From positions 96,001 to 160,000 of the forward strand of contig PSPG01000001.1 in assembly GCA_003193925.1 (NCBI GenBank): a stretch of 64,000 nt of DNA, written 5' to 3'. Below the pieces are notes generated by a model that saw only the letters and a list, made by a program, of their open reading frames with translations, ran no database searches and was not told the DNA's origin. Positions 96 through 51,662 of this stretch are shown here, piece by piece (positions within the stretch are counted from its first letter, which is position 1; every line of letters begins with the position of its first letter). This stretch comes from Candidatus Thalassarchaeum betae (GTDB lineage: Archaea > Thermoplasmatota > Poseidoniia > Poseidoniales > Thalassarchaeaceae). The position numbers and the translations under genes were made by a program.

Positions 96-638
96 TCACA
101 GCGACATCTTCTCGAGGTGGTCGATACCAGCGTCAGTCAAGACGACGTAGCGATTCTTCTCGGGCATGTCCTTGGGATATTCCAACATGGGTGACTGATC
201 CGAACCCCCCTCTAGCATCCGGCTGATGTACAGCGACAGGTTCCACTTCGAAACGTCCTCTTCCGTCCACTTCTTGCTCTGGGAGATTAGTTTCCTCAGG
301 TCGCGTGGAGGCGTGTCTGACTCCTTTTCGACGGACCTGAGGTAGTGGATGGCGGCTAGAATCACGTTGCTCTTCTTCTCGATACCACAGGTGTCGATCA
401 GGCGCCTGAAGGCCGAGCCGCGCTCCGGTATGCCGCTCCTTATCGCGACTTCGCGCGCACTCTCGATGGCTTCCTGCCTAGCCACGCGTATTCTAGAGAG
501 GGTCGACTGCCAAGTGTCCTGTTTGGTGATGTTCAGCCATGCGTCGTTCACTTCACGGGCGGAGCCCGAGAGGTCAATCTCCTCAGATCCCGCCCTGATG
601 TATATTCTGCCCACGCCACTGCTTCTGATTCCGCCCAT
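96..638 (-). CDS. Hypothetical protein, possible C-terminal winged-helix domain
   Basis: 180-aa ORF ending RYVVLTDAGIDHLEKM, a wing plus LTxxG pattern typical of wHTH domains. Confidence 0.6.
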   Translation of the reverse strand: MGGIRSSGVGRIYIRAGSEEIDLSGSAREVNDAWLNITKQDTWQSTLSRIRVARQEAIESAREVAIRSGIPERGSAFRRLIDTCGIEKKSNVILAAIHYLRSVEKESDTPPRDLRKLISQSKKWTEEDVSKWNLSLYISRMLEGGSDQSPMLEYPKDMPEKNRYVVLTDAGIDHLEKMSL

Positions 639-50100: not shown

Positions 50101-50379
50101 TCAACTGAAATGTTCGCTAAACTCTCCCTCACTCATCGCTTGCAGGGCATCCTTCGGAGTCATGCCCTCCACGTGCACTCGCATCGAGACGCAGGTGCCC
50201 ATCACCTCGCGGCACCGAGCGTACAGGTCAGCACCGGTCAGACGGTCCTTCTGATCCTCTGCGATTTCCTTGACTTGATCCATGGTCAGATTCTCCGAAG
50301 CCTCCTCCCAGGAGCCGTTGCAAGTCTTCTGCCCCAGCATCTGAATCACCTTGTGCGGTGTTTCGTTACGTGCAGACAT
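50101..50379 (-). CDS. rpl11: Ribosomal protein uL11, C-terminal rRNA-binding domain only (92 aa)
   Basis: NLTMDQVKEIA..K..L...L....REVMGTCVSMRVHVEGMTPK, in the canonical spt5-rpl11-rpl1 position. GGAGG SD before ATG 50379. Confidence 0.82.
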   Translation of the reverse strand: MSARNETPHKVIQMLGQKTCNGSWEEASENLTMDQVKEIAEDQKDRLTGADLYARCREVMGTCVSMRVHVEGMTPKDALQAMSEGEFSEHFS

Positions 50380-50465
50380 TCGTGATAGCCTCCTGTAAGT
50401 GCGCCCCGCCGACCTGCTTTCCATATTTGAGAGTGATGCAACGCCCGCAGGGCGTGCTTCTAGGG

Positions 50466-51332
50466 CTACTCCACGCGCTGAGTCACTCGAACCTGATCGG
50501 CGCGCACGGTCAGAGCCACAGGAACAGCGGCCTCAAAGAGCTCGACCGTGACTTCCTCCTTGGATTCGGTGACCCGTGTCACGCGAGCAGCCTGGCCGCG
50601 GAAAGCACCACCGTGGATCTCCACGATGCAGCCTTCCTCGATGCCGGCGGTGGCCGCCTTCGGCTCGAGGTACGGCAGGACGTCACCTAGAGGCGACTCG
50701 CCATCGAGCACCTTGCGGCAGTTCTTCATCGGCGTAGTGGACACTCCTACGCGCCCGATGAGCTTCTCGACATGGTGCAAAGCGGAGGCCTCGACGAAGA
50801 TGTAGCCGCGCATGAAGTGCGGGCTCAGGACTCCGAAGATCTGGTCTTGGATCTCCTTGAGCGAGCCGGTCCCAGAGAGTCTTGCGCGGATCTCCTTGGC
50901 GACGTTCTGCTCCTGGCCGATCGAGGTCTTGAGGATGTAGAGGAACGAGGCGACATCGCCATACATCTCACGGAGCTGCGGGGTAGCGTACTTCTTGTCT
51001 TGAATGCTGCCGGGGTCGACCCACTCGAATGCCGTGTACAGGCCTCGCGGATCGACTTCCTCGGCAGAGCTGGCGAATAGCACCGGGGTGACCTCGTTGA
51101 GGCGGTTGCCGAAGGCGAGGCCGCGAGCCTCGCCCGAGCGGACGAACTCCAGATTCTCGGCATCTATTCCGGTGACTTCGGTGATTCTGGCGGTGACGGC
51201 GTCCGCATCTTCCGGGTCGCCGACGCCGTAGATGCCATCCCAAGCCCCGGGGAAGTCTGCAACCCCGTCTGCTCGCTGCATCAGCAGGACCCTCTCCCCG
51301 TTGCGGATGAAGACAGTGAACGCGTCCGACAT
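50466..51332 (-). CDS. spt5: Transcription elongation factor Spt5 (NGN plus KOW) with an N-terminal Nudix-like domain
   Basis: NGN (KTSIGQEQNVA, GYIFVEA) and KOW (GCIVEIHGGAFRGQAARV..VTVELFEAAVPV), plus 125 extra N-terminal aa (RVLLMQR..FPGAWDGIYG..EVTGI..FEWVDP). Confidence 0.9.
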   Translation of the reverse strand: MSDAFTVFIRNGERVLLMQRADGVADFPGAWDGIYGVGDPEDADAVTARITEVTGIDAENLEFVRSGEARGLAFGNRLNEVTPVLFASSAEEVDPRGLYTAFEWVDPGSIQDKKYATPQLREMYGDVASFLYILKTSIGQEQNVAKEIRARLSGTGSLKEIQDQIFGVLSPHFMRGYIFVEASALHHVEKLIGRVGVSTTPMKNCRKVLDGESPLGDVLPYLEPKAATAGIEEGCIVEIHGGAFRGQAARVTRVTESKEEVTVELFEAAVPVALTVRADQVRVTQRVE

Positions 51333-51341
51333 GTACCCACC

Positions 51342-51608
51342 TCATGTGCCGGTGAGCCAACCGAAGAAGGACGGGAAGGCGCTGTCCATCAGCCACAGTA
51401 TCACAAATCCAATGGCGCCGAGGATGAACATCCCGATACCGCAGACTATCACGGTCTGGCGGAACTCCTGCTTCGTTGGCTTCCTAGCCATCTTGAGGAT
51501 TCGGGCGTAGGATCCGGTCTGGAGGCTTCGAACGCGTCCCTCGATCTCGTCCTGCCAGCCCTGCACGGTCTCTTCGATCGGACCGACATTGGAACTCTCG
51601 ATAGCCAT
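51342..51608 (-). CDS. secE: Protein translocase SecE/Sec61-gamma
   Basis: YARILKMARKPTKQEF plus TM GIGMFILGAIGFVI, in the ftsZ-secE-spt5 synteny. TATA-like CTTAAAT about 40 nt upstream. Confidence 0.93.
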   Translation of the reverse strand: MAIESSNVGPIEETVQGWQDEIEGRVRSLQTGSYARILKMARKPTKQEFRQTVIVCGIGMFILGAIGFVILWLMDSAFPSFFGWLTGT

Positions 51609-51662
51609 GACTAACCCTCGAAGCGACCCGGCGACCGACAGACCCCATTTAAGCACGCCGGG

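Follow-up and report, generated by a model that had tools for sequence, protein, structure and literature searches.

The spt5 gene of Candidatus Thalassarchaeum betae lies on the reverse strand of the window (the whole stretch of DNA that was analysed, 64,000 nucleotides), in the gene order secE-spt5-rpl11-rpl1-rpl10, which is a conserved operon position. The host lineage is Poseidoniales, and homologues appear in their sources under the names 'Candidatus Thalassarchaeum betae' and 'Poseidoniales archaeon'. The secE stop codon (TGA, 51342-51344) is followed by nine bases and then by the ATG of spt5 (51330-51332). A previous interpretation of this DNA (hereafter the sequence-only reading) had placed an spt5 gene of 288 codons in the canonical secE-spt5-rpl11 position, with a start 9 nt past the secE stop and a GAGGTG motif overlapping that stop. 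The ORF, the Pfam matches of the neighbouring genes, and the sequence around the start codon agree with this description (Table 1).

Table 1. Features of the spt5 locus, in positions of the window.
Feature	Positions	Strand	Remarks
spt5 ORF	50466..51332	-	288 aa plus stop, ATG start; Nudix-like domain, NGN, and KOW
Predicted Nudix-fold domain, N-terminal	50949..51332	-	Residues 1-128; acidic
Degenerate Nudix box	51165..51227	-	Residues 36-56; defined by alignment with canonical relatives, residue counts over 25 sequences
Met123 codon	50964..50966	-	In the final Nudix helix, seven residues ahead of NGN strand 1
NGN	50754..50942	-	Residues 131-193; PF03439 (Spt5-NGN), E = 2.6e-10
KOW motif	50541..50627	-	Residues 236-264; PF00467, 19.2 bits, under the cut-off of 22.3
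Shine-Dalgarno-like GAGGTG	51338..51343	-	Overlaps the secE stop, 5 nt before the ATG
secE	51342..51608	-	PF00584; start taken as the Met aligning with the ORFs of relatives; open frame reaches a GTG at 51656
rpl11, short	50101..50382	-	About 92 aa, L11 C-terminal RNA-binding domain only; context, outside the fusion

Archaeal Spt5 is typically a protein of about 150 residues consisting of an NGN domain and one KOW motif, and residues 129-288 of the protein encoded here are an ordinary archaeal Spt5. The NCBIfam Spt5 profile TIGR00405 matched residues 132-286 with 108.3 bits (cut-off of 69.95) over 142 of its 145 positions. The KOW stretch lies inside this match, which runs to residue 286, and the PF00467 label was precomputed on one close homologue (P0049). 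Gene order, copy number, and the presence of Spt4 are also shared with other archaea. No Spt5 match other than the ORF at 50466..51332 was found in the genome, indicating a single copy, and Spt4 is encoded elsewhere in the same genome (PF06093, 45.8 bits, C16:76474-76665). Replacement of Spt4 by the additional domain was rejected since the Spt4 gene is present. The Poseidoniales form differs from other archaeal Spt5 by approximately 128 extra N-terminal residues with a predicted Nudix fold. The analysis confirmed that, in this organism, the sole Spt5 has a Nudix-fold domain, the box of which is degenerate, joined to it in frame.

Distribution and reading frame of the fusion

The survey of Spt5 proposed in the sequence-only reading revealed the extra domain in all 151 sampled genomes of the Poseidoniales (22 genera in 3 families), 145 of which gave a single uninterrupted full-length match, and in none of 165 other Thermoplasmatota, the sister order included. 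In a second sample, the fusion was matched in 278 of 301 genomes of the order and in all 66 genomes of high quality. In all 48 Poseidoniales loci examined, spt5 started immediately after the secE stop. Of the 165 Thermoplasmatota genomes outside the order, 163 matched at positions ~125-288 only; the three earlier-starting matches (G263, G172, and G184) had acidic or low-complexity leaders containing no Nudix domain. Spt5 of the sister order matched over the core only (loci L049 and L050), and short acidic leaders precede the NGN strand at loci L049, L050, and L056, which represent the sister order and other Thermoplasmatota. Since the architecture is conserved in 151 of 151 genomes, an origin of the fusion by chance or artefact is excluded. 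The case that had been envisaged against the fusion, namely its absence from relatives together with a lost stop codon or a misassembly, is thereby set aside.

In one representative of 385 residues (P0128), the N-terminus was extended by another acidic stretch, in which Cys and His follow a C2H2-like pattern. The first ~70 residues of this protein had no match in the 301 genomes of the order.

The Nudix-like domain is under purifying selection. The median dN/dS was 0.109 (0.038-0.163) for this domain versus 0.015 for the Spt5 core, as estimated from 14 close pairs among 29 sequences of equal length, indel-bearing sequences being left out. The 25 diverse sequences used for residue counts were mostly saturated for this purpose (dS < 1.5 in 10 of 300 pairs). 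At the RNA level, one contig assembled from an RNA library (X1 record 2, 50775-51010) extends across the junction between the Nudix-like domain and NGN, DNA carry-over being a possible source. Contigs of the same type bridge secE and spt5; they do not provide transcript ends. These data consist of Logan contigs from 4 runs, all of which leave positions 50394-50769 uncovered, a gap that has no bearing on expression.

Translation might conceivably be initiated within the ORF. Met123 is located where other archaeal Spt5 proteins start, seven residues ahead of the first NGN strand, and source annotations of the protein give the NGN domain alone. Both observations would fit a functional Spt5 beginning at Met123, the preceding 122 codons being a separate or decaying frame, or the production of both long and short isoforms. 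This explanation appears highly improbable. Codon 123 is ATG in 20 of 25 aligned loci and a Leu codon in the other five (TTA in two, TTG in two, and CTC in one); because TTG is a possible start codon too, internal initiation is strictly excluded in three of the 25. A Shine-Dalgarno-like 5-mer was present at -16 to -4 of the ORF start in 19 of 25 loci versus none of 25 upstream of codon 123. In addition, none of the 145 full-length matches contained a stop between the domains, the dN/dS of 0.11 opposes a decaying frame, and residues Y124 and G125, which are invariant, belong to the C-terminal helix of the Nudix-like domain. The start at the internal Met near 50964, considered in the sequence-only reading as a possible objection, was therefore not retained in view of the purifying selection, the conserved Shine-Dalgarno motif and start, and the lack of such a motif at codon 123. 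A short form initiated at Met123 is very unlikely to be the sole product; a minor short isoform may be made besides the long form. Met123 is probably the ancestral start of Spt5.

Predicted fold and degenerate box of the N-terminal domain

The Pfam profile NUDIX (PF00293) matched isolated residues 1-125 with 28 bits (cut-off of 21.1, E = 2.4e-6), and it matched 11 of 25 diverse N-terminal domains at E <= 0.01. The same profile was not listed in Pfam scans of full-length proteins (three of three tried). The AlphaFold2 model of residues 1-128 had a pLDDT of 92.3, and a Foldseek search of the PDB with this model returned 345 matches at E <= 1e-3, all belonging to the Nudix superfamily among the matches listed. 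The closest folds, within ties, were those of NTP pyrophosphohydrolases, RppH, and Ap4A hydrolases. Comparison of a profile of the N-terminal domain with PDB sequences gave weak matches, not significant alone, to NudC (E = 0.061) and to a MutT-related protein (E = 0.072). The modelling thus predicts that residues 1-128 adopt a Nudix fold. The first ~125 residues had been described as Nudix-like from their motifs, with the proviso that no Nudix-fold match might be found; the AlphaFold2 model and the Foldseek matches bear out the description. The model of the full-length protein had a pLDDT of only 30-45 over residues 129-213, in the NGN part, and the geometry between the domains could not be read from it. 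Approximately 4 residues separate the last Nudix helix from the first NGN strand.

The canonical box of Nudix hydrolases, GX5EX7REUXEEXGU, contains Glu residues that bind metal, the individual roles of which were defined by work on MutT. The domain fused to Spt5 does not have this canonical box. The position of the first of the clustered Glu residues (E15) is occupied by R49, with Arg in 24 of 25 sequences and Cys in one. Position E19 corresponds to V53 and is held by Ala, Cys, Val, Ser, or Thr in all 25 sequences, with no acidic residue. Only position E18 (E52) is largely kept (Glu in 21 sequences, Asp in 2, and Ala in 2). Arg was never found at position R14, which is Lys in one sequence, and the loop of the box is shorter than in canonical relatives by 2 to 3 residues. 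Outside the box, two motifs of canonical relatives, HPxLF and WEH, have also been altered, their respective His and Glu being replaced. These counts agree with the sequence-only reading, which had quoted the box at residues 36-56 and pointed out that most of the metal-binding Glu residues were gone. The domain has gained invariant residues of its own, D32, Y99, and D106, to which R49 may be added (24 of 25 sequences), and R10 and R20 are invariant among the 25 sequences. Since the residues at R14, E15, and E19 and the HPxLF His and WEH Glu have been lost, the domain is probably inactive; judged by the box residues alone, hydrolase activity has probably disappeared.

The nearest relatives of the domain are canonical enzymes. 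Searches of 1.84 billion proteins identified, as the nearest relatives other than Spt5, canonical Nudix proteins that were either standalone or fused to IF-2B-family domains. The best of these matches to the N-domain profile were small archaeal Nudix hydrolases (E = 1e-14 to 1e-11), to which HVO_1934 would also belong, going by its name. These hydrolases (~130-140 residues, or fusions to IF-2B-family or ribose-1,5-bisphosphate-isomerase-like domains) share with the Spt5-fused domain the motifs LLxKRS, WxGxxG, ETG, P-LF, and W-V/I-xP and the C-terminal helix. They have kept the canonical box (K/R-E-I-x-E-E-T-G) and the outside His and Glu. In the Spt5-fused domain, by contrast, all of these are replaced, the box loop is shorter, and the acidity is far higher. 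In each of 36 Poseidoniales genomes, the A2 profile matched exactly once, at the domain fused to Spt5. In 57 of the 165 other Thermoplasmatota, it detected a standalone Nudix protein of 133-180 residues encoded elsewhere in the genome, and the box was canonical in the five copies examined (two from the sister order and three from other Thermoplasmatota). Most likely, a single fusion event took place in the ancestor of the Poseidoniales. A small standalone archaeal Nudix gene would have been captured upstream of spt5, the old Spt5 start persisting as Met123, and the standalone copy would subsequently have been lost in the order.

This ancestry, together with the closest folds given above (NTP pyrophosphohydrolases, RppH, and Ap4A hydrolases, within ties), raises the question of whether the domain is still an enzyme, which would act through a non-canonical site on the 5' ends of nascent RNA (ppp-, NAD-, or Np4-capped) during transcription, or on the nearby nucleotide pool. 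The conservation of E52 and the invariance of D32 and D106 are in favour of this possibility, and D32, D106, and D39 could form a non-canonical metal site with the kept E18. We regard an enzymatic role as quite unlikely, nonetheless, because two of the three box Glu residues (E15 and E19) are replaced in 25 of 25 sequences, R14 is lost, the loop is shortened, and the His and Glu conserved outside the box of canonical relatives are replaced as well. The domain is also attached to the N-terminus of NGN rather than on the RNA-exit side, where KOW lies, and its strongly acidic surface is unfavourable to RNA.

Acidity and possible role on RNA polymerase

The net charge of the Nudix-like domain had a median of -13 over ~130 residues among 25 homologues (range of -7 to -19, pI of 4.3) versus a median of -2 for the Spt5 core. 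This strong acidity argues against a general RNA-binding role. In structures of RNA polymerase bound to Spt4/5, the N-terminus of NGN is expected to be nearer to the clamp and upstream DNA than to the RNA exit channel. Several Nudix folds are not catalytic: CFIm25 is one example, and the NrtR and AraR regulators and the C-terminal domain of MutY were among the fold matches of the domain studied here.

The interpretation that we prefer, with confidence and doubt about evenly balanced, is that the domain is a non-catalytic accessory module of RNA polymerase that binds a phosphate-bearing small ligand or a protein partner and modulates elongation. The domain would ride on the polymerase whenever the NGN of Spt5 sits on the clamp. 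The former active-site cleft, remodelled and presumably containing R10, R20, and R49, would bind the phosphate-bearing ligand; alternatively, the domain would dock a protein partner. Either event may then modulate the effect of Spt5 on elongation.

It is also possible, if on the whole doubtful, that the domain binds no small ligand and is purely structural or protein-docking, as a folded acidic appendage elaborating the short acidic leaders found in the Spt5 of related orders. It would be comparable to the N-terminal region of eukaryotic Spt5, which is acidic and disordered, and would contact basic surfaces of chromatin or polymerase or keep NGN soluble and placed. The median net charge of -13, the pI of 4.3, the leaders of the sister order and of other Thermoplasmatota, and the disappearance of the catalytic residues are consistent with such a role. 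So is the location of R49, formerly a metal-binding Glu, beside the invariant D32, as a salt bridge between them could fill the old site. The parallel with eukaryotic Spt5 resides in an acidic extension located N-terminal to NGN on a polymerase-bound elongation factor; the eukaryotic region, however, is not a Nudix domain and has no homology to that of the Poseidoniales. Against a purely structural role, the most conserved positions map, according to the general topology of the fold, to elements of the substrate cleft (box helix and strand ends), and the presence in an acidic domain of invariant R10 and R20 and of R49 in 24 of 25 sequences exceeds what bulk charge would require. Handling of histones would moreover lack a partner, as no match to the histone fold (PF00808) was found in the genome, which is 92% complete, and this particular role was dropped on that ground.

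A more specific form of the preferred accessory-module interpretation is that Spt5 reads a nucleotide-type metabolite (ADP-ribose, NAD, Ap4A, or a ribose-bisphosphate) in a remodelled, metal-free Nudix pocket and thereby sets elongation and pausing genome-wide, a change to which the loss of the L11 N-terminal domain may belong. We consider it unlikely. The inclusion of ribose-bisphosphate is based on the IF-2B-fused relatives, which hint at compounds of this type.

Significance for the Poseidoniales

To our knowledge, no transcription factor other than Spt5/NusG is conserved across every domain of life, and the NGN and KOW architecture of its archaeal form is, as far as we know, regarded as nearly invariant. 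The Poseidoniales (Marine Group II) are uncultured and rank with the most abundant archaea in surface waters of the ocean. Here, throughout an order, the single Spt5 is endowed with an additional conserved domain, so that all elongating polymerases of these cells are expected to bear it. Routine annotation is blind to the domain, since the protein is named plain Spt5 or NusG, NGN alone is listed, and full-length Pfam scans miss the Nudix match. No published description of a fusion between Spt5 and a Nudix domain was found in the texts searched, which included passages of PMC9258230, PMC6741140, PMC4215014, and PMC8576121. This is in keeping with the sequence-only reading, whose author knew of no such coupling in archaea. 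That interpretation held in part, as regards a real fusion of Nudix and Spt5, a degenerate box, and a canonical locus; its further suggestion, that the domain senses nucleotides or RNA 5' ends, is a conjecture.

The neighbouring L11 protein lacked its N-terminal domain in all 41 genomes of the order that were inspected, indicating an order-wide loss. No published description of this truncation in Poseidoniales or Marine Group II was found in the texts searched. The loss suggests that the expression machinery of this lineage has changed in another specific respect; it may also affect completeness estimates based on marker genes. Together with the Spt5 fusion, it may belong to a single change in the way transcription and translation are regulated.

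The Nudix-like domain is small, confidently folded in silico, and suitable for expression by itself, and its ligand or partner can be sought experimentally without culturing the organism. If the pocket does read a metabolite, an elongation factor of universal occurrence would also serve as a metabolite sensor in these archaea, and both ends of gene expression would have been rewired at one operon.

A Nudix fold ahead of the Spt5 core

Candidatus Thalassarchaeum betae belongs to the order Poseidoniales of the phylum Thermoplasmatota. The ATG of its spt5 ORF is located 9 nt downstream from the TGA of the upstream ORF, which encodes SecE, and a GAGGTG motif overlaps this TGA; the downstream ORF matches the RNA-binding domain of L11. 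The sequence-only reading, which had described a 288-aa ORF in this very arrangement between secE and rpl11, is therefore correct on both the ORF and its neighbors. The archaeal Spt5 equivalog TIGR00405 covers residues 132–286 (108 bits for a cut-off of 69.95), and near-identical proteins are named at source 'transcription elongation factor Spt5 [Candidatus Thalassarchaeum betae]' or 'Poseidoniales archaeon'. No second match to the fusion protein was found in the same genome (1.48 Mb, 23 contigs, 92% complete), which still encodes Spt4.

The first 125 residues analyzed alone passed the Pfam threshold for NUDIX (28 bits versus 21.1), and 11 of 25 diverse homologous N-terminal domains matched NUDIX at E ≤ 0.01. 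An AF2 model of residues 1–128, based on an alignment of 25 sequences, had a pLDDT of 92.3 and a pTM of 0.86. With Foldseek, 345 chains in the PDB reached E ≤ 1e-3, and all of the matches listed belong to the Nudix superfamily, including RenU (TM 0.79), Methanosarcina MutT (0.76), and RppH (0.75). In a language-model atlas, the protein's own family ranked first and Nudix clusters accounted for 27 of 30 matches. These results identify the N-terminal domain as a Nudix fold, as its layout had suggested. NUDIX was absent from the Pfam output for three of three full-length proteins (window 50469..51332, minus strand; L035; L031), and precomputed labels in a large protein collection and public annotations report the NGN domain alone, which is the likely reason that the Nudix domain has escaped notice.

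Features of the fusion protein, its neighbor, and its relatives
Feature	Position	Strand	Remarks
Nudix-like + NGN + KOW ORF	50466..51332	-	288 aa; ATG start
NGN domain	residues 131-193	-	domain match
KOW	residues 236-264	-	weak match
Short rpl11, C-terminal RNA-binding domain alone	window 50101..50424	-	PF00298 from ~residue 6
Nudix-loop insertion	alignment A1 columns ~120-140		loci L029, L030, L041, L042, L044 and all family-f3 loci
Basic 9-residue insertion, NGN-KOW linker	alignment A1 columns ~222-230		family f3
Standalone canonical-box Nudix gene	L072:1488-1898	-	sister-order genome
Standalone canonical-box Nudix gene	L073:1492-1914	+	sister-order genome
Box position 14 (canonical K/R)			fused domain: A, S, T and others
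Box position 15 (canonical Glu)			fused domain: R in 24/25, C in 1/25
Box position 18 (canonical Glu)			fused domain: E 21/25, D 2/25, A 2/25
Box position 19 (canonical Glu)			fused domain: A, C, V, S or T in 25/25

Distribution and translation of the fusion

The fusion protein was matched in all 151 sampled genomes of Poseidoniales (3 families, 22 genera). All but six gave one uninterrupted match, from query residues 1–5 to 279–288, at identities as low as 51%. Among the six exceptions, G005 and G143 carry the complete fusion, enlarged by an insertion in a loop, and the remaining four (G095, G084, G098, and G124) gave partial or weak matches. A larger second sample, searched with a different query, gave matches in 278 of 301 Poseidoniales genomes, including 66 of 66 high-quality ones; the 23 misses listed were genomes 72–87% complete. 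The start codon directly follows the secE stop in the 48 Poseidoniales loci examined (ATG in 46, GTG in one, TTG in one). Among 165 Thermoplasmatota genomes from outside the order, 163, including the two from the sister order of the same class, had matches restricted to the region from about residue 125 on. No Nudix domain was found in three outside-order matches beginning at residues 90–105, the leaders of which are acidic or of low complexity. This survey of relatives establishes that the fusion is order-wide rather than the product of a lost stop codon or of misassembly.

Some insertions are lineage-specific: the loop preceding the last Nudix helix is longer by 8 to 17 residues in several genera, as well as in each of the eight aligned sequences of family f3. 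One homolog (P0128, 385 aa) has a further putative N-terminal extension of about 87 residues ahead of the Nudix-Spt5 part, which is acidic and contains a C-x2-C...H-x4-H pattern resembling that of a C2H2 zinc finger; no match to the initial ~70 residues of this protein was found in 301 Poseidoniales genomes.

Met123 coincides with the point at which other archaeal Spt5 proteins start, and it probably represents the ancestral initiation site. Codon 123 is a Leu codon in five of 25 sequences (TTA in two, TTG in two, CTC in one), TTG being a codon that can also act as a start. A Shine-Dalgarno-like 5-mer at positions -16 to -4 preceded codon 123 in none of the 25 sequences and the real start in 19. 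Y124 and G125 are invariant and form part of the last Nudix helix. Nei-Gojobori estimates for 14 close pairs (0.1 < dS < 1) drawn from 29 equal-length sequences gave a median dN/dS of 0.109 for the N-terminal domain versus 0.015 for the core, indicating that the domain is translated and constrained, although less tightly than the Spt5 core. Contigs from RNA libraries, which cannot reveal transcript ends nor exclude DNA carry-over, spanned the Nudix-NGN junction in one run and the secE-spt5 junction in two. Thus, dN/dS, the Shine-Dalgarno counts, and the Leu codons support translation of the whole N-terminal domain rather than initiation at the internal Met; a short isoform may also be made from Met123 as a minor product. 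The fusion is genuine and ancient and has been maintained.

Degeneration of the Nudix box and probable origin of the domain

We compared a profile of the domain with 1.84 billion representative proteins. The E < 1e-30 tier consisted of eight proteins, every one a Spt5 fusion or a fragment of one. The next tier (E of 1e-14 to 1e-11) comprised canonical Nudix proteins, which were standalone (128–140 aa), tandem, or fused to IF-2B-family (ribose-1,5-bisphosphate-isomerase-like) domains. Aligned with these relatives, the fused domain retains the family framework but departs from it at catalytic positions. Its box loop is 2–3 residues shorter, and the HPxLF His and the WEH-motif Glu of these relatives are likewise replaced. 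The counts over 25 fused-domain sequences (see the table) confirm that the box is degenerate and that most metal-binding Glu residues are gone, E18 being kept in 21. D32, Y99, and D106 are invariant in the fused type, and residue 49 is Arg in 24 of 25. The Nudix box consensus and the importance of its Glu residues are known from MutT-type enzymes; since most of these residues are replaced, canonical pyrophosphohydrolase activity has probably been lost. The fused protein belongs to the Spt5 family and to the Nudix fold superfamily, but does not match the box by which Nudix hydrolases are defined.

Across 36 Poseidoniales genomes, the domain profile matched once per genome, in the fused protein, and no standalone copy of this Nudix subfamily was found. 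Standalone members occur away from spt5 in 57 of 165 other Thermoplasmatota genomes (location compared by eye for 11 genomes), and all five copies examined retain the canonical box. Two of the standalone genes come from sister-order genomes (L072 from G176, L073 from G309), and both are flanked by L10e (uL16)-like and isopentenyl-phosphate-kinase-like ORFs, as judged by eye from translations. In the simplest scenario, a single capture in the Poseidoniales ancestor would have placed such a Nudix gene upstream of spt5, the free copy would then have been lost, and catalysis would have been lost as well.

The neighboring rpl11 is also altered. L11 is about 92–98 residues long in the same genome and in four of four other Poseidoniales loci scanned (short L11 loci L031–L048, compared with L049 and L050). 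The L11 N-terminal domain PF03946 was matched in none of 41 Poseidoniales genomes but in 34 of 40 from the class's other orders and in all 14 controls. In the sister order, L11 has the normal 156 residues and both domains, and adjoins a short Spt5. Thus, two adjacent expression-machinery genes, spt5 and rpl11, changed architecture on the same branch.

Possible role on the polymerase

The N-terminal domain is strongly acidic: its net charge ranges from -19 to -7 (median -13) and its pI is 4.3, the net charge of the Spt5 core being -2. Such acidity speaks against general binding of RNA or DNA and, therefore, against the 5'-end-sensing part of the sensor proposed by the sequence-only reading. A histone fold (PF00808) was not found in the Ca. 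T. betae genome, 92% complete, and three histone-bearing archaeal controls were matched.

Short acidic leaders precede the first NGN strand in Spt5 of other Thermoplasmatota (L049, L050, L056, and L058), and in L058 (genome G184) a long Pro/Ala/Glu-rich open frame lies upstream of Spt5. Because these leaders occur in related orders, an acidic N-terminus may be ancestral to Spt5 and may have been elaborated into a folded domain in Poseidoniales. They also speak for the main alternative, that of a purely structural acidic domain. Against an acidic tail stand three conserved Arg residues in the domain (R10 and R20, invariant, and R49), which we take, from the general topology of the fold, to be located on elements forming the Nudix substrate cleft.

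Full-text literature searches, supplements aside, turned up no account of either the fusion or the truncated L11, in keeping with the initial impression that such a coupling had not been described in archaea. The domain would work most like the non-catalytic Nudix domains of NrtR, AraR, the MutY C-terminal domain, and CFIm25, although no specific kinship to any of them was found; none of these is known to be joined to an elongation factor, whereas the Poseidoniales domain is. An enzyme of a non-canonical kind is a lesser alternative. Together, degeneration of the box, acidity, and conserved Arg residues on putative cleft elements favor a non-catalytic accessory module, which would bind a ligand or a partner and be present on every Spt5-bound polymerase.
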